DNA of 47,005 bases from Verrucomicrobiales bacterium (GTDB lineage Bacteria; Verrucomicrobiota; Verrucomicrobiia; Methylacidiphilales; JAAUTS01), in contig JAISDC010000046.1 of NCBI GenBank assembly GCA_031265105.1, positions 1-47,005 on the forward strand, in the 5' to 3' direction. Shown here one piece after another: positions 1 to 44,859 of the stretch (position 1 is the stretch's first letter; each line of letters starts with the position of its first letter). The notes under the pieces were generated by a model. The model did no database searches. It was not told the origin of the DNA and worked only from the letters and a program-made list of their open reading frames with translations. Both the position numbers and the translations under genes were made by a program.

Positions 1-1964
1 ATATCACTGCGGCCGTAGCCGGCATAGACTCCAAGATACAAGTCACTGTCAGCGCTGATGGTGAACTTGTGATCCGTGCCGAGATCGACGCCGTAGATGA
101 GTTGTTCGTAGGCTTTGCCCGATACTTGGTTGCTGACATTTAGCTGTTGGCCGTAGCTTCTTATCCAGATGTTTTCGATTATATGGAGCGCGGGCGTCCC
201 GCCCGCTGGCGGGCGGGACGCCCGCGCTCCATAGCGCAGTTCGCCCATACGTTTGAGCAAACTGTTTTGCTGCGCGAACCACATGGCTTGTTGGATGGCT
301 ACGCTGCTGTTGAGGACTGCGCCGGCGGGGCTGGTGCCGTTTTTGACGAAGTGGTCGCCGTCTTTGATGAGTTGGTCAATACCCCAGTCGATCGGATCCC
401 ATTGCCAGTGTTCGGTGCCGTCGCCGCTGACGATGCCGGGGAGGACTTGGTTTGGGTCGGCCTTGCCGTTGCCGGTGGTGTTGATGTGAACTGTGCCATC
501 ACCGTCAGCGGTGTCGATGACAGCGATGGAGCCGCCCTCACCGGTATCGCTGTTGACGCTGATGGTGAGGGTGCCGGTGTGAAGCATGTTGTCGAAGATG
601 ACTTCATAATCGCCGAGGTTCCACACGCCGTTGTTCTCACCGTAGTTGCCGTGGCTGTCTTTGTTGAAAGTCCACACGCTGTCGCTGCCGGTGATGAGGT
701 TGCCGCCATTGAAGCCGCCTTTGCCGGTGGCGCCGGTATCGAGGGTGACGGTGACGACGGCGGCGGCGTGTTGCGCGATGTCGCCGGCGAAGCTGCTGCC
801 GGGGCCGCTGACGGTGAGGTCGAGGGTGGCTGCACCGCTGCCGGTGACGGCGCTGGTGATGACGGCGCCGTTGCTGCCGCTGACGGTGAGGGTGGCGTTG
901 TCGTTGGCGATGAGGTCGCCGGTGAGGGTGCTGTGGTTCAGGTCGATGGTCAAGGTGGAGAGAACGTTACTTACGATATCGCCAGTCAGGGTGGAATCGG
1001 TGATGGCAACCGCCGCCGCGGGCGCGTTTTTTTGCCCGCTAACGATTTCCGTGTTGATGACGATGGGCGCGACCAGGTCGGCGCCGGTGATGGTGACGAT
1101 AGCGGCGGCGGCCATGTCCGCGCCGAAGTTCACGGCACTGTGCCCCGAGACCAAGGAACCGCCGTTGATGATCAAGACAGGGCGCTCGCTGGCAGAGCCG
1201 CTGAGGTTGATTGCCGCGACATTATCGGCGGTGATGTTCACGTTATTGAGCACGGCGGTGCCGGTGATGGCCAGATGGAACCCGCTGGCGGTATGACTTT
1301 TCGGGCCAGTGTGTACAATCACGGCGTCGGTGAGCGTGGCGAAGCTATCTTGACTGCGCACTCCGCGCCCGTCCGAGCCGGTGGCGGTGAAGGTGCCGCT
1401 GGTGATGGTCAGCGTGGAGCTGTTGTACACCGAAACGGCAAAAGCCGCATCCCCCGCCGTGGTGATGGTGACTCCGGACAAACTGACGCTGGCGGCGTCG
1501 GCCGTCACCCCATAACCGCCAAAGCCGGTAGTGGTGATGGTGACCCCGGATAAGTTGGCGTTGGCAAAGGAATTGACCAGCACCCCATGTCCCCGACTCC
1601 CGGTAGTGGTGATGGTGCCGCCGGTGATGGTCATGGTGGAGGAACCGAGCGCCGCCGCGCCGATGCCACTCTGCACCGGCCCGCCGGTGATGGTGGCATC
1701 GCGCAAGTCCAGCCGGCCCTGGTTATAAACGTAGGCGCCATAGTGTCCGTTATTGGCAACGGCGGTGCCGCTGAGGGTGAGGCGGGTGCCGCTGTACCAA
1801 GTCTCGCTGCCGCTGACTTGCAGGGCGGCGGTGCCGGAAATGCCTGCGTAGGTTTGGTCCGCTTCCGTCACGGTGCCGGAGGTGACGACTTTGTTTTCCG
1901 CGAGCACATTCAACGCGGAGGCGCCGAGGGCGCTGAGGATGAGGAGTGTTAGTTTGGGGTGCAT
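1..1964 (-). CDS. Autotransporter-family outer-membrane protein, paralog 1 (5' end complete, 3' end runs off the left window edge)
   Basis: ATG at 1964 gives signal peptide MHPKLTLLILSALGASALNVLA. This frame has no listed ORF in the track, consistent with it staying open to base 1 with no in-window stop. Gly/Thr/Ala/Asn-rich passenger. The last ~300 aa are near-identical to the full-length autotransporter at 13467..16013 (...NSLLKRMGELR...ENIWIRSYGQQ...YAGYGRSDI). Confidence 0.85.
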   Translation of the reverse strand, partial: MHPKLTLLILSALGASALNVLAENKVVTSGTVTEADQTYAGISGTAALQVSGSETWYSGTRLTLSGTAVANNGHYGAYVYNQGRLDLRDATITGGPVQSGIGAAALGSSTMTITGGTITTTGSRGHGVLVNSFANANLSGVTITTTGFGGYGVTADAASVSLSGVTITTAGDAAFAVSVYNSSTLTITSGTFTATGSDGRGVRSQDSFATLTDAVIVHTGPKSHTASGFHLAITGTAVLNNVNITADNVAAINLSGSASERPVLIINGGSLVSGHSAVNFGADMAAAAIVTITGADLVAPIVINTEIVSGQKNAPAAAVAITDSTLTGDIVSNVLSTLTIDLNHSTLTGDLIANDNATLTVSGSNGAVITSAVTGSGAATLDLTVSGPGSSFAGDIAQHAAAVVTVTLDTGATGKGGFNGGNLITGSDSVWTFNKDSHGNYGENNGVWNLGDYEVIFDNMLHTGTLTISVNSDTGEGGSIAVIDTADGDGTVHINTTGNGKADPNQVLPGIVSGDGTEHWQWDPIDWGIDQLIKDGDHFVKNGTSPAGAVLNSSVAIQQAMWFAQQNSLLKRMGELRYGARASRPPAGGTPALHIIENIWIRSYGQQLNVSNQVSGKAYEQLIYGVDLGTDHKFTISADSDLYLGVYAGYGRSD
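183..232. repeat. 50-bp perfect palindrome inside the autotransporter CDS (24-nt arms, 2-nt centre)
   Basis: ATGGAGCGCGGGCGTCCCGCCCGC-TG-GCGGGCGGGACGCCCGCGCTCCAT read directly. Each arm also contains its own mini-hairpin, GGGCG-TCC-CGCCC. It is translated in the gene frame as ...YGARASRPPAGGTPALH... Confidence 0.95.
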
Positions 1965-2003
1965 GTGGGTTCTTTCGATTGTTTGTGGTTGGTTGAAAAT
2001 TTG

Positions 2004-2065
2004 TTAATCCGCAGATTAACGCAGATGTTTTTAAATAATTTAATCTGCGAAAATCTGCGGATTAA
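2004..2065. repeat. Long hairpin element (about 23-bp stem, A/T-rich loop) in the autotransporter-1 leader
   Basis: TTAATCCGCAGATTAACGCAGAT ... AATCTGCGAAAATCTGCGGATTAA. That is 14 + 7 paired bases around a 2-nt mismatch, with loop GTTTTTAAATAATTT. The arm is a stuttered word (CCGCAGATT / AACGCAGAT). Confidence 0.85.
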
Positions 2066-2190
2066 GTAGCTAAAGCTGCGGGACGGTGCTCCCCTCGCCG
2101 CTGACGCTGGCGGATAGTATTCCGCCGGATGGGGAATGAACGGGGTAAAACTCTGCTGGGAAATTAGGGAGTCGGGGCAGGAGTCATACT

Positions 2191-2245
2191 GAGCGCGTGA
2201 GCGCGTGAGCGCGTGAGCGCGTGAGCGCGTGAGCGCGTGAGCGCG
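2191..2245. repeat. Octanucleotide tandem repeat (GAGCGCGT) x 6.9
   Basis: Six perfect 8-bp units plus 7 nt counted directly. It lies 227 bp upstream of the autotransporter-1 start codon. The paralogous position upstream of autotransporter 2 carries 9.9 units. Confidence 0.97.
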
Positions 2246-2288
2246 GCGCACATGGTCTATGACTTATCTTGCTCATCTTCAGCGGATA

Positions 2289-2317
2289 ACGATATGGAAT
2301 CTGGCTGTCTTGCGCAA
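2289..2317 (-). promoter_or_regulatory. Candidate sigma70-type promoter of autotransporter 1
   Basis: Minus strand reads A-tract, TTGCGC, 17 nt, TATCGT. The same -35 hexamer and 17-nt spacing followed by a TAnnnT hexamer is found at the paralogous locus (16358..16386). No experimental support. Confidence 0.35.
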
Positions 2318-2382
2318 GGTTTTTTTAGTTTTTTTAACCACACGAAATGTTTGGAGTGAGGACAAGGTTATATTGACATTGG

Positions 2383-6454: not shown

Positions 6455-7795
6455 TCACGGCCGCGGCTGATTGTCAGCGGCGAAGGGTTGCCAATCGGAC
6501 TCCTCCCGGAGTAATTTTCGCGCCAGGCCGGTCACGCTGGTCACCGGGCCGCGGCTAAAATCAACCGGCGTATTCACCGTCACCCAGTCCATGTAATCGC
6601 CAACCAACGACATGTATTGCCACACCTCGCGCTCCTGCTGTTCCGTCGCCGCGACGCACGCCAGGAATTCGGCCTGCCGGCCCGTCAGCCAAACTTCCAG
6701 GCACAACCGGTAAAACTCGATGATTTTCATCCACGCCGGGTGCGCTTGCAATTGCAGATCCGACAAGGCCCCGATTCTGGCGCGCACCGGCTCAACGGCG
6801 GCCAGTTGCCCCGGCGCCGGCAGCTCCCTGATGGCAAAAACTTTGGCGGCCGCCGTCTGCCCCGGCGCCGCCGGCCGCAATGCCACGCTGATTTGTTTGT
6901 ATTGCTCAAGCCGCGCCACCGTTTGCTCCCAATCGCTGATTTTGCCCGGCGGCGGGTCGGCGCTGGCCTGCCACCAACTTTCATTGCGCGGGGCCGGGTC
7001 CAGGAACGAGCGGTCTTGCGCGTAATCGCCCGAACTCAGCCACAACACCAGCGCCTGTTTGGCGGCGGTTTCCACCGTCCCCGCCCGGACCAGCCAGTAA
7101 ACCAGGGCCTGCCGCCAGTGGGATTCCAACACATCGTCAGTGAAGCCGTCCCACGCCTGCACCTGGGCCAAAGTCGGCAGCCGCCCCAGTTGCCGGTAAT
7201 GCCGCGCAATTTTGGCGTAGGTGGCGTGGCGCGATTTCATCATGAGCTGCGTCAGCCCCTCGCGCAGCCAAAACGGCGGTTCCACCAGGCCGCCGTCCTT
7301 GACCGTCATGTGTTGCGACCACACCAGGGCCTGCAAATAACAGGCCATGCAGGAACGGTAAAATTCCTCCCGCAGGATGGCCTGCCGGCCGGCGTCACGA
7401 CCGTCGGCCAGCGCGCCGCGCGCCAGGATGGTGAACACCCGCGAACCGTCGGGCAGCAAGTCAACCTTGCGCGGGAACGAGGCAAACGAGTCGTAAGGCG
7501 GCGGCAGCGGCGTGCTATCCCAGGAAAGTTTCAGGGCGAACCCCGGAATGGCGGTCAGGCCCGTGGTTTGCAGGAAGGTTTGGTAGGCTTGTTCCGCCAG
7601 GGTCAGCATGGCGGCGTTCACCAGCGAATCGGCGCTGCGCGCGCTGATGGGATAATCGTCGCTGCGGTCATTGTACACGCGCACCAACTGCGGCTTGGCG
7701 GCCGCCGCGTCGTCGTCCTGCGCGGTCACCGGCAGCGGCGGCGCCGCCAGCGTCACCGCCAGCGCCGCCGACCATATGGCGATTTTCGGGTTCAT
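6455..7795 (-). CDS. Hypothetical secreted protein
   Basis: 447 aa from ATG 7795 with signal peptide MNPKIAIWSAALAVTLAAPPLPVTAQD. No domain recognised. The upstream part of the 769-aa track ORF is antisense to ispA. Confidence 0.65.
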   Translation of the reverse strand: MNPKIAIWSAALAVTLAAPPLPVTAQDDDAAAAKPQLVRVYNDRSDDYPISARSADSLVNAAMLTLAEQAYQTFLQTTGLTAIPGFALKLSWDSTPLPPPYDSFASFPRKVDLLPDGSRVFTILARGALADGRDAGRQAILREEFYRSCMACYLQALVWSQHMTVKDGGLVEPPFWLREGLTQLMMKSRHATYAKIARHYRQLGRLPTLAQVQAWDGFTDDVLESHWRQALVYWLVRAGTVETAAKQALVLWLSSGDYAQDRSFLDPAPRNESWWQASADPPPGKISDWEQTVARLEQYKQISVALRPAAPGQTAAAKVFAIRELPAPGQLAAVEPVRARIGALSDLQLQAHPAWMKIIEFYRLCLEVWLTGRQAEFLACVAATEQQEREVWQYMSLVGDYMDWVTVNTPVDFSRGPVTSVTGLARKLLREESDWQPFAADNQPRP

Positions 7796-13454: not shown

Positions 13455-13466
13455 TTCGAATTGTTT

Positions 13467-16013
13467 TTAGAACTGGTGCCGATAGCCGGCGGTCAGTCCC
13501 CAGGGTTTGTCGTACTTGTCGCCGAAGGAGGCTTCGTAGTCGAGGTGGAGTTGATTGTCAGCGTCCAACTGCCAGATGAGGCCGCCGCCTACTTCGGCTC
13601 GTGCACCGTCAGTGTTGGCGCGGGTGGATTGATAGCCGTTTCTGATGGTGCCACCGCTGCTGATGGTTTCGACGCCGCTGACCTTGAGGTAGGGCTGGAG
13701 TGCGCCGCCGTTGGTGAGGTTGATGGTTCTGCCAAAGAGGCTGCCGATGCGGAGTTGCAAGGCGTCGAGGTCTTGGGCGCTGATGGTCAAGGGAGCGGCG
13801 CTGTAATCCTCAGCGAGGATGTGGAGGTAGTTCACTTGGAACTGAGGTTCGATGAACCAAGCATCGCTGAAGGTGAACTTTTTGCCGAGTTCGATACTGC
13901 CACCGAGGTTGACATCGCTGTAGTTGGCTTTGAGTTGGGTATTGGCGTAGGGGGCGTTTAGTTCGTTGTCAACGCTGGCGGCTTTGAAGGTAGCGTCGAG
14001 GTAGAAGCCGCTGCTGTGTAACCACGTGGCATAGAGACCGCCGTAGTAGGAGTTGAGTTTACCGTTAGCGCCGGGGGTGCGGTAATCTATATCACTGCGG
14101 CCGTAGCCGGCATAGACACCGAGATACAAGTCATTGTCAGCGTTGAGGGTGAATTTGTGATCAGTGCCGAGATCCACGCCGTAGATGAGTTGTTCGTAGG
14201 CTTTGCCAGCGACTTTGCCGCTGATGTTGAGTTGTTGGCCGTAGCTGCGGAGCCAGATGTTTTCAATTATATGGAGCGCGGGCGTCCCGCCCGCTGGCGG
14301 GCGAGACGCCCGCGCTCCATAGCGCAGTTCACCCATGCGCTTGAGCAGGCTGTTCTGCTGCGCGAACCACATGGCTTGTTGGATCGCCACGCTGCTGTTT
14401 AGGACGGCGCCGGCGGGGCTGGTACCTTGTTTGACGAAGTGGTCACCGTCTTTGATGATGGTGTCGATGCCCCAGTCGATGGGATCCCATTGCCAGTTCT
14501 CCGTGCCGTCGCCGGTGACTTTGCCGGGGAGGACTTGGTTGGGGTCGGCTTTACCGTTGCCGGTGGTGTCGATGTGGACGGTGCCTGCACCGTCAGCGGT
14601 GCCGGTGATGGTGATGGAGCCGCCTTCGCCGGTGTCGGTGTTGACGCTGAGGTTGACGGTGCCGGTGTGGGTCATGTTGTCGAAGGTGACGTTGTAGTCG
14701 CCGATGTTCCACACGCCGTGGTTTTCGCCGTAGTTGCCGTGGCTGTCTTTGTTGAAAGTCCACGCGCTGTCGCTGCCGGTGATGAGGTTGCCGCCGTTAT
14801 AGCCGCCTTGGCCGGTGGCGCTGTTATCGAGGGTGATGGTGACGGCTGCGTCGTCGTTTTGGGTGATGTCACCGAGCAGGGTGCTGTTGGTGCCGCTGAC
14901 GGTGAGGTTGAGAGTGCCGGAGCCGCCACCGATGACGTCGCCGTACAAGTCGGTGTTGTTGGCGGTGACGTTGACGATGGCGCTGCCGCTCACGTTGACA
15001 GCATTGCTGCCGTCATCCGTGGTACGCACGTCGTTGAGTATAATTTGGTGGTCAGTGCCGCCGCTAACACCGATTTTACTACCGTCCGGATTGGTGACGC
15101 TGATGGAGCCGCCGTTCATTTCCACGGCGGCGGTGACGGCGGACATTACGATGCCGGCGTTGCTGCCGATGAGGTCAACGTCAACCAGGACGGCCCGCTG
15201 GTTGGTACCGCTGTGATAGCTGTTAGCCATGACGGCGATGGCGCCTTGCAGGGTGCCGCCGATGACGGTGACAAAAGCGTTGTCCTCTTCCATCAGCAAA
15301 GCCGACGCCTCGCTTTTGACATTCAGGTTCCTGACGGTGCCCGACGAGCCGGCGTTGGCGTAGAGGCCGTATGACATGGTGCCGGCGGTGGTGATGGTCA
15401 CGTCGGTCAGGTCGTAGGTCGCCCTGCTGGCCCAAATGCCATGCGCATTAAGCACGCCGGACGTGTTGATGGTCAGCCCGGTGCCAGTCAGCGTGGCGTC
15501 GCCGGTGAGTTGAACCGCGGCGCCGGCGAAGTAGCCCTGGGTTTTGGTAAAGTTGACGGTCACGTTTTGCACCTGGCCGATGGCGCTGCCGGTGAGACTC
15601 AGCGCGTAGGTTATGTTTTCCACCCTGGTGGCGGTGGCGCTGATTTGCACGTCGGTCAAACTGACGGTGGCTTGGTCGGTGGCGAACACCGCGTACTTGT
15701 AATTAGTTCTGTCCCAGTCGCTGGTGGTGAGGGTGACGGTGCTGCTGTGCAAGTCCAGCCGCGCGGTGCCGTCCACGTAAGCGCCGTAACCGCCGCGCCC
15801 GCTGGTGTTGCCGTTGTCGGCGATGAGGGTGACGGCGGTGCCGCTGTAGGCGCCCTGATTGGTGACCCACAGGGCGGCTTCGCTGGCGGTGGCTTGGTAG
15901 GTGGCGCCGCTTTCGGCTTCGGTGGAGCCGTCAACGACTTTGGTGGCGGCGAGTACGCTCAACGCGGAGACGCTGAGGGCGCAGAGGATGAGGAGTTTGA
16001 GTTTGGGGTGCAT
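13467..16013 (-). CDS. Autotransporter-family outer-membrane protein, paralog 2 (full length, 848 aa)
   Basis: Signal peptide MHPKLKLLILCALSVSALSVLA and a repetitive Gly/Thr/Asn passenger. RMGELR...IWLRSYG junction, then a C-terminal beta-barrel of alternating hydrophobic strands ending ...WGLTAGYRHQF (terminal aromatic residue). Confidence 0.9.
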   Translation of the reverse strand: MHPKLKLLILCALSVSALSVLAATKVVDGSTEAESGATYQATASEAALWVTNQGAYSGTAVTLIADNGNTSGRGGYGAYVDGTARLDLHSSTVTLTTSDWDRTNYKYAVFATDQATVSLTDVQISATATRVENITYALSLTGSAIGQVQNVTVNFTKTQGYFAGAAVQLTGDATLTGTGLTINTSGVLNAHGIWASRATYDLTDVTITTAGTMSYGLYANAGSSGTVRNLNVKSEASALLMEEDNAFVTVIGGTLQGAIAVMANSYHSGTNQRAVLVDVDLIGSNAGIVMSAVTAAVEMNGGSISVTNPDGSKIGVSGGTDHQIILNDVRTTDDGSNAVNVSGSAIVNVTANNTDLYGDVIGGGSGTLNLTVSGTNSTLLGDITQNDDAAVTITLDNSATGQGGYNGGNLITGSDSAWTFNKDSHGNYGENHGVWNIGDYNVTFDNMTHTGTVNLSVNTDTGEGGSITITGTADGAGTVHIDTTGNGKADPNQVLPGKVTGDGTENWQWDPIDWGIDTIIKDGDHFVKQGTSPAGAVLNSSVAIQQAMWFAQQNSLLKRMGELRYGARASRPPAGGTPALHIIENIWLRSYGQQLNISGKVAGKAYEQLIYGVDLGTDHKFTLNADNDLYLGVYAGYGRSDIDYRTPGANGKLNSYYGGLYATWLHSSGFYLDATFKAASVDNELNAPYANTQLKANYSDVNLGGSIELGKKFTFSDAWFIEPQFQVNYLHILAEDYSAAPLTISAQDLDALQLRIGSLFGRTINLTNGGALQPYLKVSGVETISSGGTIRNGYQSTRANTDGARAEVGGGLIWQLDADNQLHLDYEASFGDKYDKPWGLTAGYRHQF
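14271..14320. repeat. 50-bp palindrome inside the autotransporter-2 CDS (one arm mismatch)
   Basis: Same sequence as 183..232 except A at 14304. In the gene frame that change is synonymous (TCC to TCT, Ser). Confidence 0.95.
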
Positions 16014-16053
16014 GTTGGTTCTTTCTGTTGGTTAGGGTTGGTTATGTTGATGG

Positions 16054-16116
16054 CTGCAAAAGAACGCAGAGAGGAACCTTTTAAAAAATCTCTGTGTTCT
16101 TTGCGTTCTCTTGCGG
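16054..16116. repeat. Hairpin element in the autotransporter-2 leader
   Basis: AAAGAACGCAGAG (16059-16071) pairs with CTCTGTGTTCTTT (16090-16102), including one G-T pair, around loop AGGAACCTTTTAAAAAAT. The right side continues with stuttered words GCGTTCTCTTGCGG. Confidence 0.75.
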
Positions 16117-16232
16117 CCATTAAATGGAGGCGCAGATGACGCTGACAATCGGCGTATTGCCGGATGGGGAATGAAGTGGGTAAAACTCTGCGGGGAAATT
16201 AAGGAATCAGGGCAAGAGTCATAATCAGCGGT

Positions 16233-16311
16233 GAGCGCGTGAGCGCGTGAGCGCGTGAGCGCGTGAGCGCGTGAGCGCGTGAGCGCGTGAGCGCGTGAGC
16301 GCGTGAGCGCG
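16233..16311. repeat. Octanucleotide tandem repeat (GAGCGCGT) x 9.9
   Basis: Nine perfect units plus 7 nt counted directly, 220 bp upstream of the autotransporter-2 start codon. Confidence 0.97.
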
Positions 16312-16357
16312 ATGTACTTACTTTATGACTTAGGTCTCTCATCTTCAGCGAGTTGAT

Positions 16358-16386
16358 AGAGTATCTTATCAACCCGGTTGGCGCAA
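16358..16386 (-). promoter_or_regulatory. Candidate sigma70-type promoter of autotransporter 2
   Basis: Minus strand reads A-tract, TTGCGC, 17 nt, TACTCT. Positionally equivalent to 2289..2317. Confidence 0.3.
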
Positions 16387-16394
16387 GAAATTTT

Positions 16395-16466
16395 TTAACC
16401 ACGGATGGACACGGATTATTTTTTGTTGGTTTTAATCCGTGTCCATCAGTGTCCATCCGTGGTTAA
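16395..16466. repeat. Long hairpin element 3' of the SGNH hydrolase gene
   Basis: TTAACCACGGATGGACACGGATTA, T-rich loop, TAATCCGTGTCCAT(CAGTGTCCAT)CCGTGGTTAA. The right arm carries a 10-nt stutter duplication. It begins 7 nt after the stop at 16473. Confidence 0.8.
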
Positions 16467-16472
16467 ACAGCG

Positions 16473-17276
16473 TTACGACTTACCCTCAAGATACTTGTCA
16501 ATCAGCGGCTGGATGGCGTCCGCCCAGATTTGGTAGCCCTTTTCGTCCGGATGCAGGAAGTCGTACAAGACCTCCCGGCTGATGGTGCCGTCCGGCTGGA
16601 GGAACTGGTCGCCGAAATCGAGGAAGATGACCTTGTTGCCATCGGCGAACCTGGCAATCAGCTCGTTCATTTGCTTGCGCGAGGCCCGGCTGCCGCTGGG
16701 TTTTTCCCCGTTGGGCAAAACGCCGTGGAGCAAAATAACGGCGTCCGGGCAGCGTTCCCGATAGGCGGCGATGATGGCGCCGATTCCTTCCGCGATTTGT
16801 GTCGGGGTATTGGGCACGGTCTTGTTGATGCTGTTGCCGCCGGTGTTGTTGATGCCGATCATGAGCACGATCAGCTTGGGATTCAGGCCGGCGGCCTGTC
16901 CCTGGGCGAGGCGCCAGAGCAGATTTTCGGTGCGATCACCGCCGAGGCCGAAATTCACGGCGTCATACTTGGCGTAGCGTTGCGCCCAAATCTTTTTGCC
17001 GCGGCTCTGCCAGCCGTCGGTGATGGAATCGCCGTCGAAGATGATTTGGCAACTGGCGGCCACCTGTCGGCTGTTTTCAATATTGCGCTTGACGCGATAC
17101 AGCCAGTCAACGCGCGGCATCGCGTGGCTCGCCGGGTTTTGTCCGGCCGCGGCCGGTGCCGGGAAGTCCGGCAGGGCGGCGAGGATAGATGAGTTTTCTT
17201 GCGCCGCGATACCGGCTGCCAGACCGGAGAAAACACCGATTAATACCAATGGGAAACGCATTTTATGTCTTTTCAT
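16473..17276 (-). CDS. SGNH/GDSL hydrolase (PAF-acetylhydrolase-like esterase), secreted
   Basis: Blocks FDGDSITDGW, GLGGDRTENLLWRL, MIGINN and DFLHPD, plus a signal peptide. Paralog of 33967..34725. Confidence 0.85.
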   Translation of the reverse strand: MKRHKMRFPLVLIGVFSGLAAGIAAQENSSILAALPDFPAPAAAGQNPASHAMPRVDWLYRVKRNIENSRQVAASCQIIFDGDSITDGWQSRGKKIWAQRYAKYDAVNFGLGGDRTENLLWRLAQGQAAGLNPKLIVLMIGINNTGGNSINKTVPNTPTQIAEGIGAIIAAYRERCPDAVILLHGVLPNGEKPSGSRASRKQMNELIARFADGNKVIFLDFGDQFLQPDGTISREVLYDFLHPDEKGYQIWADAIQPLIDKYLEGKS

Positions 17277-17290
17277 AATTGATTAGGCTT

Positions 17291-17306
17291 ATTTGATATA
17301 TCAAAT
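17291..17306. promoter_or_regulatory. 16-bp perfect palindrome ATTTGATATATCAAAT (candidate operator)
   Basis: Read directly. It lies in the 78-216 bp divergent, AT-rich gap between the SGNH hydrolase gene and the orphan gene at 17355/17493. Confidence 0.25.
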
Positions 17307-17492
17307 AAATTCACACAGCAAGGATAATTTGCGGATTTTTATGATCTATTTGTTATGGCATCTCAATACGCTGATCATGTATCTCGCCTGCGCAAATTCC
17401 TCTTCCGTGAGGAAGGTAACTCGCTGACGCGGAAACGAACCCCACTAACTAAATCCGCAAACTGCTTGCCATGCGCTGACGATGAGGGTAGC

Positions 17493-18134
17493 ATGAATGA
17501 GATGTCCGACCCCCAGCGGGCCGCCAATCAGCACAATCGGACTTCACCCGCTGGCGGATTAAGTGAAGCCGAGTTTTGGCGGCAAGCGACCATGCCGCTG
17601 GCTATTGCCACTCTTGCTGAAGCCAAACAACAAGCGCGCCGGTTGGTAGGACGCCCGTTAACCAATGTCGCGACCGGCTTGGTGGCCGCCGTCTCCAATA
17701 ATAGTGTCAGCAAAATGACCAGCGGCAGCGCGGTTAAAAAATCCGGTTCCCTGACCGCGCATGCGCTGGCAATTGCAAATTTGGACACATTGTTCAAAAA
17801 CGCCGCGCTGGTTGAAACGCGCGCTGATCGCAACAATAATCCAGACATCATGGCGATTCACCGTTTTTACGCGCCGCTGAATGTCACCGGGGAAATTTAC
17901 GCGGTAAAACTCACAGTCAAATCCTTGACTGCAAAGGAGCAGGGAAACCGGATTTATACGGTGGAAGCTCTGGATATGGCGAAGCCCGACATAAAGCGGG
18001 TTGAACCTGCGAAGAATAATCCTGCAACCTCAATCCAATATGCGGGCTTCATTGGTAAGCTACGTTCTCGGCAGGATATTGTCAACGGGAAAAATGAACT
18101 CCCTGGGCAGTATTGTCACGAGCCTCATGAATAA
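17493..18134 (+). CDS. Hypothetical protein; resembles a module of phage/conjugative-element polyvalent proteins
   Basis: ORF 17355..18134; ATG 17493 is preceded by GAGGG. The motif string TG..A.VS..SVSKM.SG.A.KKS......H..A..NLD.LF..A......R....NP.I.AIHRFYAP....G.IY.VKLTVK......GN.IY..EAL recalls, from memory only, LPD/PBECR-type domains. The region has low GC. Confidence 0.55.
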   Translation: MNEMSDPQRAANQHNRTSPAGGLSEAEFWRQATMPLAIATLAEAKQQARRLVGRPLTNVATGLVAAVSNNSVSKMTSGSAVKKSGSLTAHALAIANLDTLFKNAALVETRADRNNNPDIMAIHRFYAPLNVTGEIYAVKLTVKSLTAKEQGNRIYTVEALDMAKPDIKRVEPAKNNPATSIQYAGFIGKLRSRQDIVNGKNELPGQYCHEPHE

Positions 18135-40986: not shown

Positions 40987-41805
40987 TCAGCGCCCGCGAC
41001 CGCCGCCCCAGCCGCCGCCGCGTCCGCCTGGGCCGCCTGGACCACCGCCACCGCCACCGCCGGGACGGATTTCGGCGTCAATGCCCCGCGATTCCTGCTC
41101 CACGGCTTTCATGTAATCGGGATAGGTTTTCCACCATTCGCGGCGCTCCTGCAAATAATCAAACAACGGCAGATTGGTGTTCAGCCGGCTGAGCAAGGTC
41201 TCGCGCTCGGTCAGCATGGCCTGGATTTTCTCGCCGTCGGGGCGTTTGGCGATGGCGGCCAGCACGTCGATTTTCATCATCTGGTACAACGCGGCATCCT
41301 GCGGCACCAGGCTTTCCTCGCGACCATACCAAAACTCGCCGGCTTGAATCGCCGCATATGCCTTGTCAAAATATTCCAGGATGCCCTCGGGAGTCTGGTT
41401 GTCGGCGGAACGCTGTTTGCGGAACACTGCCGGTGACCGGCGCGACAGGGATTGTTTCATGAGAAACAGGTATTCCTCGGGCTTGATGCCGTACAGCCGG
41501 TTGGCGGTCTCGCCGAGGATGGGATTGACATAGGCGTCAATTTCCAGGATGCGCTTGGTAGCCTTGTCGTTCTGTTCCTGGACTTTCTTGACCAGTTCAC
41601 TGACATTGTTGACGGCTTGCATGCCGAGCGTGAACTCGTCGTTGGCATCCTGGTTTCGTGCCGTGCCGCTGACGGTGGTCGTGCCGCTGCCAGTGGTCGC
41701 GGCGGTGGCGCTGCCAGTGGCGGCGGCCTTGCCGCGATAATCCTGCCCGTGCGCCGGCGGCCAGGCCAGGGCCAGCAATCCCAGTATCAGCGTAATCGGT
41801 TTCAT
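40987..41805 (-). CDS. Hypothetical secreted protein with Gly/Arg-rich C-terminal tail
   Basis: Signal peptide MKPITLILGLLALAWPPAHG and tail RPGGGGGGGPGGPGGRGGGWGGGRGR. 4-nt overlap with the upstream gene. Confidence 0.6.
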   Translation of the reverse strand: MKPITLILGLLALAWPPAHGQDYRGKAAATGSATAATTGSGTTTVSGTARNQDANDEFTLGMQAVNNVSELVKKVQEQNDKATKRILEIDAYVNPILGETANRLYGIKPEEYLFLMKQSLSRRSPAVFRKQRSADNQTPEGILEYFDKAYAAIQAGEFWYGREESLVPQDAALYQMMKIDVLAAIAKRPDGEKIQAMLTERETLLSRLNTNLPLFDYLQERREWWKTYPDYMKAVEQESRGIDAEIRPGGGGGGGPGGPGGRGGGWGGGRGR

Positions 41806-42362
41806 TGATATTTCCCCAGCGCGGTTTGGTAATATTGCAGATGTTCCTGAATCAGGCGGATGATGTCGGTCACCTGGGTGTCCGCCGTTTGATACAAACC
41901 CAGATACCGTTGCAATTCGCCAACCGAGCGCCCGAAATCGCCGCGCGACTTGGCAAACATATTGTCAGGATCGGTGTCCTGGATGGCCTTGCTCATTCGT
42001 TCCTCGCGCTCCTTGTCCGACAGGCTGTAACCGGCCTGCCGTTTTTGCTTTTCCTGCTGTTCCAGGAATTGTCGTCGTTTGCCCGCGCCGCCGCCGGAGC
42101 GATAATAACGCGAAATATCCTGCGCCTTGGCAATCACTGTCAGCAGCAGTTGATGCGTGTCCTCATCGTGCATCCGGGCGGACAGGTTTTTATCCAGCGC
42201 GCTCAGGTTTCGCGTGAACGCGCCGGTAATCTGGCTGAGGTCAATGTTGCTGGTGTTGCGAATCGGATCCAAGTCCTGCGCCCGCAAAGGCACGGTCAGC
42301 GCCAGTGTCGCGAGCGTCACGGTCAGCGTCAGTTTCAGTTTCAATGCCGTTTTTTTCATCAT
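41802..42362 (-). CDS. Hypothetical secreted helical protein
   Basis: Signal peptide MMKKTALKLKLTLTVTLATLALTVPLRAQD. No domain recognised. Confidence 0.55.
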   Translation of the reverse strand: MMKKTALKLKLTLTVTLATLALTVPLRAQDLDPIRNTSNIDLSQITGAFTRNLSALDKNLSARMHDEDTHQLLLTVIAKAQDISRYYRSGGGAGKRRQFLEQQEKQKRQAGYSLSDKEREERMSKAIQDTDPDNMFAKSRGDFGRSVGELQRYLGLYQTADTQVTDIIRLIQEHLQYYQTALGKYQ

Positions 42363-42392
42363 TACCTCCCGCCTTTAATCTACCTCATTTTA

Positions 42393-43541
42393 TCACCGCG
42401 TTGTTTTGAAATCCTGGTCCGCCGCGCGCTCGAACGCCGCCTTCGCCTCGTTGGCCTTGGGCAGGTTGGTTTGCTGCACCAGCCACAACACCATCTTGCC
42501 GGTGTTTTTATAGACGGTGGTGTTGGTGCCGTGCGAGCCGCTATGCCCCATCGAGTTGTCGCTGCAAGCCCAGCCGAGACCGTAGCCGTTTTTCACCGCG
42601 TCGCCGGTTTGCTTCTTGCCCAGTTCCGCGACCGCGGCGGCGCTGAGGATGCGGGTGCCGTGGAACACTCCTTTGCCGGCGATCATTTGGTAAAATTTCA
42701 CCAGGTCCTCCGGCGTGCTGAACAGGCCGCCCGCCGCCTCGGCGAAACGCTTTTCACGGTTGTCGAGCGGATATTGCAACTGGCCGATGTCCACCGCTTC
42801 CAGCTTGCCGTCCTTCACACAGTAAGCTTTCGCCAGTTGCTCCAGTTGCGCGCCCGTCGGCCAGAAGGTCGTGTTGGTCATGCCCAGCGGGTTGAACAAC
42901 CGCTGTTGCAAAAACTCGTCATACGGCTGGCCGGAAATTTTTTCAATAATCGCGGCGATGATGTTGATGCCCTGGTTCGAGTAATTGTAATCCGCGCCGG
43001 GCTGGAAGCGCAACGGCGTGATGGCGCTGACCGTGACGCCCTCCTGAAACGGCAGCACGTCAATTTTGCCCGCGCGTTGCTGCGCCAGGTTCACCCATTC
43101 CATGCCGCTGGTGTGCGACAGCACCTGCCGCACGGTGGGCGGGTTGGTCGGTTCCTCGACATGCCAGCGGGTTTCGCCGCTGCCGGTGAGGATTTTCAGG
43201 TCTTTCAATGCGGGCAGATAGTTGGCGACCAGCTGGTCGAGGTCGAGCTTGCCCTCGTCCCACAAAATCATCGCCGCCGCGCCGCATATCGGCTTGCTTT
43301 GCGAGGCCACCCAAAACAAGGTGTCGGCCTTCATCGGCTTTTGGTTCTCGATGTCCGCCCAGCCGACGCAGGTGAGGTCGAGCACCCGCTCCGGGTCGGC
43401 GACCACCGTGACGACGCCCGGCAAGTCGCCGCGGTCGATGTACGGTTGCAGGATGTTCTGATACTGCTGCGCCTGGCCGCTGACGGCGAGCGCGCCGAGG
43501 GTCACGGTCAGCGCCGGCCAGGTTTTTATCGTGCCAGTCAT
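42393..43541 (-). CDS. Serine hydrolase, beta-lactamase/transpeptidase-like (class C / PBP4* type)
   Basis: S-x-x-K motif (VASQSKP) and Y-S-N motif (NYSNQG), with signal peptide from ATG 43541 (MTGTIKTWPALTVTLGALAVSGQA). Confidence 0.82.
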   Translation of the reverse strand: MTGTIKTWPALTVTLGALAVSGQAQQYQNILQPYIDRGDLPGVVTVVADPERVLDLTCVGWADIENQKPMKADTLFWVASQSKPICGAAAMILWDEGKLDLDQLVANYLPALKDLKILTGSGETRWHVEEPTNPPTVRQVLSHTSGMEWVNLAQQRAGKIDVLPFQEGVTVSAITPLRFQPGADYNYSNQGINIIAAIIEKISGQPYDEFLQQRLFNPLGMTNTTFWPTGAQLEQLAKAYCVKDGKLEAVDIGQLQYPLDNREKRFAEAAGGLFSTPEDLVKFYQMIAGKGVFHGTRILSAAAVAELGKKQTGDAVKNGYGLGWACSDNSMGHSGSHGTNTTVYKNTGKMVLWLVQQTNLPKANEAKAAFERAADQDFKTTR

Positions 43542-43554
43542 AAATCGGGATTTT

Positions 43555-44859
43555 CTAAATCGTCGTGTTGTCCGGCACAATCGTGCCTTTCGGAATAATC
43601 ACAATGCCCTCGCGCACATAGTACAAGGTCGAGTCAAAATGCGCCGGCTTGTCCGCGCCGCTGATGGTGACGTTCCGGCCGATGCGGGCGTTTTTGTCAA
43701 CGATGGCGCCGCTGATCTTGGTGTTGGCGCCGATGCCGACATGCGGAATCTTGATGTTCTGGTCCGCCTGCATATCCTCGTCGCACTGGTAGAAGTCGGC
43801 GCCCATGATGATGCTGTCCTTGATTTCCACGCCGGCTTCAATGCGGCTGCGGATGCCGATGATGGAATGGGTGATGTTGGCGTTGGAAATGATGCTGCCC
43901 TCGGACAGCACCGCCTTTTCCACGCGGCTTTCTATCACCTTGCTGGCCGGCAGGGTCAGGCGCTGCGAATAAATCGGCGAGTTGCCGTCGTAAAAATTGA
44001 ACTGCGGCACCGGGTTGGTCAGGTCCAGGTTGGCGTCATAGAACGCCTTGATGGTGCCGATGTCCTCCCAGTAGCCCTGGTAAATGTAGGAAAACACCTT
44101 CTTGTCGGTGATGGCCTGCGGAATGATGTCGCGGCCGAAGTCGGTGTTGCTCATGTCAAACAGCGCCTCCTCCAGCACCTTGCGGCTGAACACGTAAATG
44201 CCCATCGACGCCAGATACAGGTCGCCGGCCTGGTGACCTGACAACCGGCTGCGGGTGGCGTCGCTGATGCGCAGCGAGTCCAGCAGGGCGTCGTCCTTCG
44301 GCTTTTCCACGAACCGGGTGATGCGGCGGTTGTCGTCCACCTGCATGATGCCGAACCCGCGGGCCGGCTCGCGCGACACCGGAATGGTCGCCACGGTGAT
44401 GTCAGCGCCGGTCTTGACGTGTTGCGCCAGAATCCGCCGGTAATCCATGCGATACAATTGGTCGCCGCTGAGAATCAGCACCAGGTCGTGCTGGTGGTTG
44501 GACAGGTGACTGATGTTCTGCCGCACCGCGTCCGCCGTGCCCTGGTACCAGCCGGTCATGTCGCTGTTCTGCGTGGCGGCGAGAATGTCAATGAAATCGT
44601 AAGGATAATAGTCGTCGAAACTAAAACTCTGGTAAACGTGGCGGTGCAGCGAGGAACTGAGATATTGCGTCAGCAAAAAGATGCGCTTCAAGCCCGAATT
44701 GATGCACAGGCTGATCGGAATATCCACCAGCCGGTACTTGCCCGCCAGCGGCACCGCCGGCTTGGCCCGTTCCTTGGTCAGCGGAAATAACCGGGTGCCC
44801 GCGCCCCCGCCCAGAATCACCGAGATTACCCGGCTTGAATCAAAAAAATTTTGTTCCAT
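43555..44859 (-). CDS. glgC: Glucose-1-phosphate adenylyltransferase
   Basis: ILGGGAGTRLFPLTKERAKPAVPLAGKYRLVDIP and a C-terminal left-handed beta-helix repeat region. Confidence 0.93.
   Translation of the reverse strand: MEQNFFDSSRVISVILGGGAGTRLFPLTKERAKPAVPLAGKYRLVDIPISLCINSGLKRIFLLTQYLSSSLHRHVYQSFSFDDYYPYDFIDILAATQNSDMTGWYQGTADAVRQNISHLSNHQHDLVLILSGDQLYRMDYRRILAQHVKTGADITVATIPVSREPARGFGIMQVDDNRRITRFVEKPKDDALLDSLRISDATRSRLSGHQAGDLYLASMGIYVFSRKVLEEALFDMSNTDFGRDIIPQAITDKKVFSYIYQGYWEDIGTIKAFYDANLDLTNPVPQFNFYDGNSPIYSQRLTLPASKVIESRVEKAVLSEGSIISNANITHSIIGIRSRIEAGVEIKDSIIMGADFYQCDEDMQADQNIKIPHVGIGANTKISGAIVDKNARIGRNVTISGADKPAHFDSTLYYVREGIVIIPKGTIVPDNTTI

Follow-up and report, generated by a model that had tools for sequence, protein, structure and literature searches.

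To our knowledge, nearly all contingency loci described so far come from pathogens adapted to a host, such as Neisseria, Haemophilus, Campylobacter and mycoplasmas, and those known to us act through the gene's own reading frame or promoter. In the opa genes of Neisseria, a (CTCTT)n repeat in the signal-peptide coding region sets the frame; these genes are present in multiple copies that switch independently and combinatorially, with most of them OFF. The (CAAT)n repeat of Haemophilus influenzae lic1A operates with alternative start codons and gives more than two expression states, and a frame change in the poly-C tract of N. meningitidis siaD leads to Rho-dependent polarity, with premature transcription termination downstream. 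The heptanucleotide (ATCTTTC)n of H. influenzae hmw1A and hmw2A is transcribed in the 5'-UTR, where a hairpin between the repeat and a G-rich arm is cut by RNase III and expression falls steadily as the repeat number rises (PMC12721329). Rho attenuation controlled by an upstream ORF (uORF) is established for tnaC-tnaAB, mgtL and others, and phase variation can also arise from invertible elements in which a rut site is exposed in one of the two orientations, as in fimS and the C. difficile flgB switch (PMC12360218).

Here, we analyzed a 47,005-nt contig of a Verrucomicrobiales bacterium (JAISDC010000046.1 of assembly GCA_031265105.1; hereafter the window), for which an earlier note had described a perfect 8-bp repeat array upstream of a surface-protein gene and proposed a slipped-strand switch. 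Tandem Repeats Finder and direct reading both placed the array, (TGAGCGCG)7.0, at 2190-2245, with a period of 8, 100% matches and no indels. The paralogous locus, which had been said to carry a different copy number, indeed has about 10 units to the 7 of locus 1: Tandem Repeats Finder reported 10.8 copies at 16227-16311, and the array is perfect over 81 nt of these. In both arrays the unit length of 8 is not a multiple of 3. Both genes lie on the minus strand, and the gap from the array to the main ATG is about 225 nt at locus 1 and about 217 nt at locus 2. A search for two consecutive units with up to two mismatches gave 15 matches in the window, all of them within the two arrays, where shuffled sequences led us to expect 0.15. 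Alignment of the two intergenic regions revealed conserved blocks flanking the array on both sides. In two termite-gut metagenome runs containing the window, word depth over the array was 100-1000 times the flank depth, and the contigs, built with k=31, collapsed the array and broke at it. Runs of this kind include SRR14710921. No tRNA or tmRNA genes were found in the window, and no Rfam family matched the window or eight related loci. The slipped-strand idea of the earlier note is supported in part, the array being a very good candidate for such a switch of a surface-protein gene. The coordinates of the features are collected in Table 1.

Table 1. Features of the two array loci in the window.
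Feature	Positions	Strand	Description
Autotransporter paralog 1	1..1964	-	ATG at 1964; signal peptide MHPKLTLLIL...; runs off the left end of the window
Read-through frame f1, locus 1	1949..2189	-	Open from the array; stop 1951-1949, 13 nt past the main ATG; ORF 1949..2251
Long palindromic (REP-like) hairpin, leader 1	2004..2065	-	Predicted by folding; about 40 nt before the main ATG; crossed by f1
Post-array block, locus 1	2124..2189	-	Conserved, pyrimidine-rich (GTATGACTCCTGCCCCGACTCCCTAATTTCCCAGCAGAGTTTTACCCCGTTCATTCCCCATCCGGC); C 40%, G 15%
Second-frame stop TAA, locus 1	2164..2166	-	Within the conserved CTAATTTC motif
uORF of locus 1, state A	2184..2276	-	ATG 2276-2274; 30 codons; TGA 2186-2184 directly after the array
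Array 1	2190..2245	-	(ACGCGCTC)7.0 in gene orientation, perfect; encodes (RSRAHALT)n within the uORF
Promoter, locus 1	2289..2336	-	Putative; -10 TATCGT 2294-2289, 17-nt spacer, -35 TTGCGC 2317-2312
A-tract UP-like element, locus 1	2320-2336	-	Assigned from sequence
Autotransporter paralog 2	13467..16013	-	848 aa; Pfam PF03797 Autotransporter beta-domain, E 5e-41
uORF of locus 2, state B	16199..16342	-	ATG 16342-16340; 47 codons; TAA 16201-16199 in TTAATTTC
Array 2	16231..16311	-	(ACGCGCTC)10.1, perfect
Promoter, locus 2	16358..16386	-	Putative; -10 TACTCT 16363-16358, 17-nt spacer, -35 TTGCGC 16386-16381

We then scanned one genome per bacterial species for four repeat units, and compared the loci by sequence analysis of MAG contigs throughout. 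What had been described as a feature of two paralogs turned out to be one cassette with shared flanks, present at no fewer than 50 loci in termite-gut Verrucomicrobiales MAGs and placed before several unrelated kinds of surface protein. At least about 50 loci came from a single MAG, Verrucomicrobiales Gx481_bin192, with further loci in Gx481_bin94 and Pc512_bin95, and the repeat unit was present in at least four species-level genomes. All Verrucomicrobial loci had common flanks. Four-unit matches in Streptomyces, Myxococcota and others were also considered as cassettes and were rejected, as they were single matches in high-GC DNA with unrelated flanks. The complete arrays (n=44) were perfect and ranged from 4.1 to 12.2 units, arrays at contig ends reached at least 14.8 units, and in nearly every cassette found the array was perfect with at least four units. 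One cassette (L013, + strand, near 6500-6610) carried the variant unit (CGCGCTCT)7 instead of (CGCGCTCA)n. This variant indicates that the unit can change and then spread through the array by slippage, and also that the search pattern is in part responsible for the units being identical from locus to locus. A protein-database search with the product of the open frame described below returned two matches only, both from the same termite MAG lineage, so the cassette is rare in public data.

Three groups of contig-end loci from Gx481_bin192 and bin94 (L007/L057, L054/L063 and L028/L030/L056) combined different promoter-side flanks with identical sequence after the array, and in two of the three groups the unit numbers also differed. 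Either the repeated cassette has affected the assembly graph, or recombination at the arrays exchanges upstream halves.

Among the products of the genes led by the cassette are autotransporters, beta-helix proteins of the PATR/PEP-CTERM kind and a CsgG-like lipoprotein, which are typical targets of contingency switching, along with two families without a Pfam match, and the occurrence of the cassette before unrelated families shows that it is portable across gene types. Both window paralogs start with MHPKL(T/K)LLIL..., and paralog 1 shares 80-87% identity with paralog 2 and MAG homologues in their C-terminal parts. In termite-gut runs, the signal-peptide region of paralog 1 (window 1908-1958) had about 65-140 times the depth of single-copy flanks, which suggests a very large community gene family with the MHPKL...LLIL signal peptide. 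Next to locus 2, an ORF at 17355-18134 (+) that adjoins a GDSL lipase contains a Large polyvalent protein-associated domain 3 (LPD3, E 5e-22), which is typically found in proteins of mobile elements. Elsewhere in the window, positions 40987-43600 hold several imperfect tandem repeats of 12, 18 and 24 nt (GTGCCGCTGCCAGTGG...) in long overlapping ORFs. No cassette motif was found near these repeats, and the region may be another repetitive surface-protein gene.

A promoter-like element TTGCGC-17-TATCGT (2317-2289, minus strand) had been pointed out upstream of array 1, and its conservation at about 50 related loci now lends weight to this assignment. An A-tract followed by TTGC(G/A/T)(C/T)-17-TAnnnT was present 5' of the array in every cassette with enough upstream sequence (about 50 loci), with TATCGT, TACTGT, TAACAT and TAATGT among the variants of the -10 element. 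The cassette would be transcribed from this putative sigma-70-like promoter. A search for RNA runs covering the locus found none. By-eye comparison of the post-array block with consensus sequences gave no convincing match to sigma-54, ECF-type, Bacteroidetes-type or second sigma-70 promoters, and these candidates were rejected. At the window loci the uORF ATG lies only 12-15 nt from the -10 element, which would leave the mRNA nearly leaderless. No canonical Shine-Dalgarno sequence was found before the uORF ATG, which is directly abutted by GAAG.

Many MAG cassettes (L003, L017, L037, L039, L059 and others) have an insert of 75-100 nt at the predicted 5' end of the transcript, closed by GTTATCGG...CCGATAAC and with inner stems, and in these cassettes the -10 element and the uORF ATG are 36-110 nt apart. 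The insert occurs in at least two sequence classes and is absent from window positions 2277-2288 and 16343-16357. A search of Rfam gave no match for it. Possible explanations are a stem-loop that stabilises the 5' end and a small mobile insert.

In about 50 of 52 cassettes, a conserved ATG precedes the array by 30-32 nt, most often 31; in the window it is found at 2276 and 16342. Across 37 sequence variants, the first ten codons of this uORF contained no stops, compared with 92 and 55 in the other two frames. Where N-terminal codons differed between variants, substitutions in the uORF frame were conservative, with a mean BLOSUM62 score of +0.36 vs -1.07 and -1.05 for the other two. The consensus of these codons, which precede the array, is M-x-x-(I/L/V)-(S/G/A)-H-(N/K/R)-(V/I/L)-(S/E)-x, and the repeat unit, which is stop-free in all sense frames, would be translated as (RSRAHALT)n. 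The variant unit of L013 is likewise stop-free in all sense frames. A small ORF on the opposite strand (ATGGGGAATGA...) was rejected, its ATG being lost in 9 of 31 loci. The array had earlier been placed in a transcribed leader, with hmw, where repeat number tunes expression, as the closest precedent. An untranslated leader that works by its length is improbable here: the array lies inside a conserved, ATG-initiated putative uORF, and the three frames that leave it have very different fates.

Because the unit is 8 nt long, the gain or loss of one unit shifts a ribosome to another frame. In most loci, the first early-stop frame ends 0 to 5 nt after the array, at the TGA of GTATGAC, and the second ends 23 to 29 nt after it, at a T(A/G)A in TTAATTTC; at least 29 of 31 aligned loci retain this stop. 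In the third frame, f1, most loci have no stop for 150-460 nt past the array. We counted stops from the conserved block to 36 nt before the main ATG in 25 loci, and found 3 per 1460 codons in f1 vs 50 and 60 in the other sense frames; the antisense frames were similar to the latter. This openness holds even though parts of the leader are unrelated between subfamilies. It was also seen in 8 of 10 loci that had been set aside for an unclear downstream gene, where f1 had no stop over 276-457 nt. The end of f1 falls between -36 and +16 nt of the main ATG in 23 loci, which puts the stop of the leader ORF at or next to the downstream start, as would be expected for translational coupling. In 6 of the 23, stop and start overlap as ATGA, a classic arrangement for translational coupling. 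Some loci depart from this pattern: in one subfamily (L017, L031, L034 and L067) two frames instead of one allow long reading, which means that the logic varies between loci; L035 and L041 have a stop within the open frame; and several loci have no recognisable gene start anywhere near the end of the open frame.

Both window loci are in early-stop states. At locus 1, the seven units give a 30-aa uORF whose stop lies 222 nt before the main ATG. When we simulated other unit numbers at this locus, 8 or 5 units led to a 111-aa or 103-aa uORF in f1 that ended +13 nt from the main ATG. At locus 2, 9 or 12 simulated units extended the uORF to the stop codon 16034-16032, which precedes the main ATG by 21 nt, with 9 units giving 100 aa. 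Read-through would thus be reached by the gain of one unit at paralog 1 and by the loss of one at paralog 2. As in contingency loci, the repeat lies inside a reading frame, and a change of one unit switches between products of 30-47 aa and of 100-111 aa. Among 36 loci with both flanks, 27 were in the first early-stop state (A), 7 in the second (B) and 2 in the read-through state (C), or 3 if L009, with its misplaced anchor, is included; the loci are paralogous, so these locus, stop and state counts are not independent. State A was reached with arrays of 33 to 98 nt, and its occurrence at many array lengths shows that it is not merely an inherited length.

One same-locus comparison was made. 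L036 is the syntenic orthologue of window locus 2, with 89% identity over window positions 13466-17368. The flanks of the two arrays are about 97% identical, and the arrays measure 81 nt and 41 nt, a difference of exactly 40 nt or five units (10 vs 5), as a result of which the two loci are in different frame states. Within this single orthologous pair, the array therefore differs in copy number between lineages at one locus. The intergenic leader (window 15990-16480) shares about 97% identity with L036 vs 89% for the whole locus (3.9 kb, mostly autotransporter coding), and this higher conservation suggests that the leader is under purifying selection. When metagenomes were scanned with the GDSL lipase next to the locus, no close relative was identified, all relatives having at most 50% identity, and exact-protein look-ups gave one Logan contig only, which ended inside the array.

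Across loci, the post-array block contains 33% C, 34% U and 17% G. RNAalifold predicted no conserved secondary structure in it, with three weak pairs only. With this composition and this lack of structure, the block is a candidate Rho-loading site; a conserved peptide is an alternative candidate. Variation within the block had no clear three-base periodicity, and what is conserved may be the RNA or DNA and not a peptide. An inverted repeat around the array (AGTCATA/TATGACT) was rejected as a conserved stem because its arms changed without compensating changes, and the TGA within it is better explained as the stop codon of the first frame.

GC-rich and REP-like hairpins follow the post-array block, and a terminator scan found no canonical intrinsic terminator. 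The leaders are predicted to fold strongly, with z-scores of -7.1 (leader 1), -4.1 and -6.2. The minimum-free-energy fold of the full leader contained no complementary arm and no long hairpin of the hmw kind, the array folding as short local CGCG hairpins, and the main ribosome-binding region was not sequestered in the predicted folds. REP-like palindromes (for example TTAATCCGCAGATT...AATCTGCGGATTAA and CCACGGATGGACAC...GTGTCCATCCGTGG) lie at window positions 2004-2065, 16030-16100 and 16395-16460, both in leaders and upstream of promoters. Related palindromes recur beside the cassettes of the MAG loci, and the open uORF frame crosses those in leaders. The leaders of L005, L013, L021, L059 and L068 contain more tandem repeats 100-400 nt past the array, translated for instance as ...VRTFSRKVRTFLES..., and in these leaders f1 is open for up to 457 nt, with no recognisable gene start near its end.

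We consider it probable that these loci undergo slipped-strand phase variation through a frame-gated uORF, acting by translational coupling, by protection from Rho, or by both. The array would be the hypermutable core of a portable promoter-leader cassette that precedes many surface-protein genes. Transcription would start at the conserved sigma-70-like promoter, and the uORF would be translated from the conserved ATG 31 nt before the array and on through the array. Slipped-strand mispairing would add or remove a unit and so place the ribosome in another frame. In two of the frames, the ribosome would meet the conserved stops 0-5 nt or 23-29 nt past the array; in the third, it would translate the entire leader and terminate at the main start codon or beside it. 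This read-through state may turn the gene on or raise its expression by either of two routes. Ribosomes arriving at the main ATG could act by translational coupling, that is, by termination and reinitiation, or they could cover the C-rich unstructured stretch and the leader hairpins and thereby block Rho or terminator hairpins. In the early-stop states, about 200 nt of naked leader would be left, and the gene would be off or down. The analysis shows how the cassette is built and conserved, how unequal the three frames are, and that copy number differs among loci and within an orthologous pair; we infer a high slippage rate, translation of the uORF and an effect of unit changes on gene expression, and that read-through is the ON state is our guess. 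If it is, fewer than 10% of loci would be ON in the consensus genomes, which would resemble other large families of variable surface proteins. On a wider scale, the chances seem to us about even that the cassettes form a genome-wide combinatorial lottery of surface proteins. In such a lottery, at least 50 independent three-state switches would use one portable repeat-gated leader-ORF cassette and would work through uORF read-through (coupling or anti-Rho), not through the gene's own frame or promoter.

Several other explanations share part of this evidence. The array could be transcribed and untranslated, with its length grading expression through RNA structure, processing or spacing, much as the hmw repeats in the 5'-UTR of H. 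influenzae act through a hairpin cut by RNase III (PMC12721329). The position of the array between a conserved promoter and the gene fits such leader tuning, as does the strong leader folding (z-scores from -4.1 to -7.1). However, tuning by length leaves unexplained why an ATG is kept at a fixed distance and followed by stop-free N-terminal codons, and why two conserved stops come after the array and one frame is open to the main start; the array itself is also predicted to form only short local CGCG hairpins, without a complementary arm. We therefore regard this explanation as unlikely.

We judge it quite improbable that the array is a neutral passenger, namely an unstable microsatellite without a regulatory role in a module spread by duplication and recombination, the open frame being a relic of former coding sequence. 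Paralogy and gene conversion could account for much of the recurrence of the cassette, slippage alone would be expected to yield a variant unit such as (CGCGCTCT)7, and the predominance of state A could reflect shared ancestry. Yet the open frame persists through unrelated leader segments and extra tandem repeats and repeatedly closes at the main start codon, state A occurs with array lengths from 33 to 98 nt, nearly all cassettes found have perfect arrays of at least four units, and unrelated gene families stand behind them. The tandem 8-mers might also serve, as RNA or DNA, as a multivalent site for a TRAP-like oligomeric regulator or a small RNA, with copy number setting the occupancy. One unit recurring at no fewer than about 50 loci in at least four species-level genomes would suit a binding array, and so would the adjacent block, which is highly conserved and has no predicted structure. 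No candidate partner was identified, though, the unit looks uniform in part because of the search pattern and does have a variant, and the three-frame architecture would be left without an explanation; this possibility is in our view very unlikely.

The preferred reading, a repeat-gated uORF, would have several consequences. The cassette appears to be a simple-sequence contingency locus with a new design, in which an uncultured termite-gut member of the PVC superphylum places dozens of autotransporter and PEP-CTERM proteins under one reusable module. In the open-access literature searched, neither repeat-gated leader ORFs nor phase variation in Verrucomicrobia came up. If confirmed, the design would be a new way to couple slipped-strand mutation to gene expression and would provide a compact, portable three-state stochastic switch. 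It would also mean that large-scale stochastic surface variation exists in insect-gut commensals, perhaps directed against phages, protists or host factors. For annotation, it matters that ribosomes probably translate the 'intergenic' leaders and that assemblies break there.

Like the hmw repeats, the repeat of the cassette has a unit that is not a multiple of 3, lies between the promoter and the start of paralogous genes for large adhesins, and differs in copy number between them. Unlike hmw, the cassette has no predicted arm, its array sits in a conserved uORF with frame-specific fates, and it occurs at 50 or more loci rather than two. The hmw precedent invoked in the earlier note therefore stands for the position of the array and the type of gene, whereas no arm is predicted and the uORF architecture is left unexplained by the hmw model. 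The resemblance to opa lies in a multi-copy family of outer-membrane proteins, each copy with its own frame-setting repeat. In opa, however, the repeat is inside the regulated ORF, whereas that of the cassette is in a separate uORF 214-227 nt upstream and the frame of the gene is constant. With uORF-controlled Rho attenuation the cassette would share the principle that exposure of a naked C-rich leader depends on whether a leader ORF is translated, and with rut-carrying invertons the principle that a stochastic DNA change decides termination. Its input differs from both, being a frameshift in the uORF caused by repeat slippage and not a ribosome stalled by a metabolite or a DNA inversion, and the role of Rho in it is putative. 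Finally, the cassette is like lic1A and siaD in that a repeat drives a frame change at the 5' end of a reading frame. The repeats of those two systems are part of a functional gene or of an operon's first gene, whereas the ORF of the cassette appears to be product-less and to act in cis.
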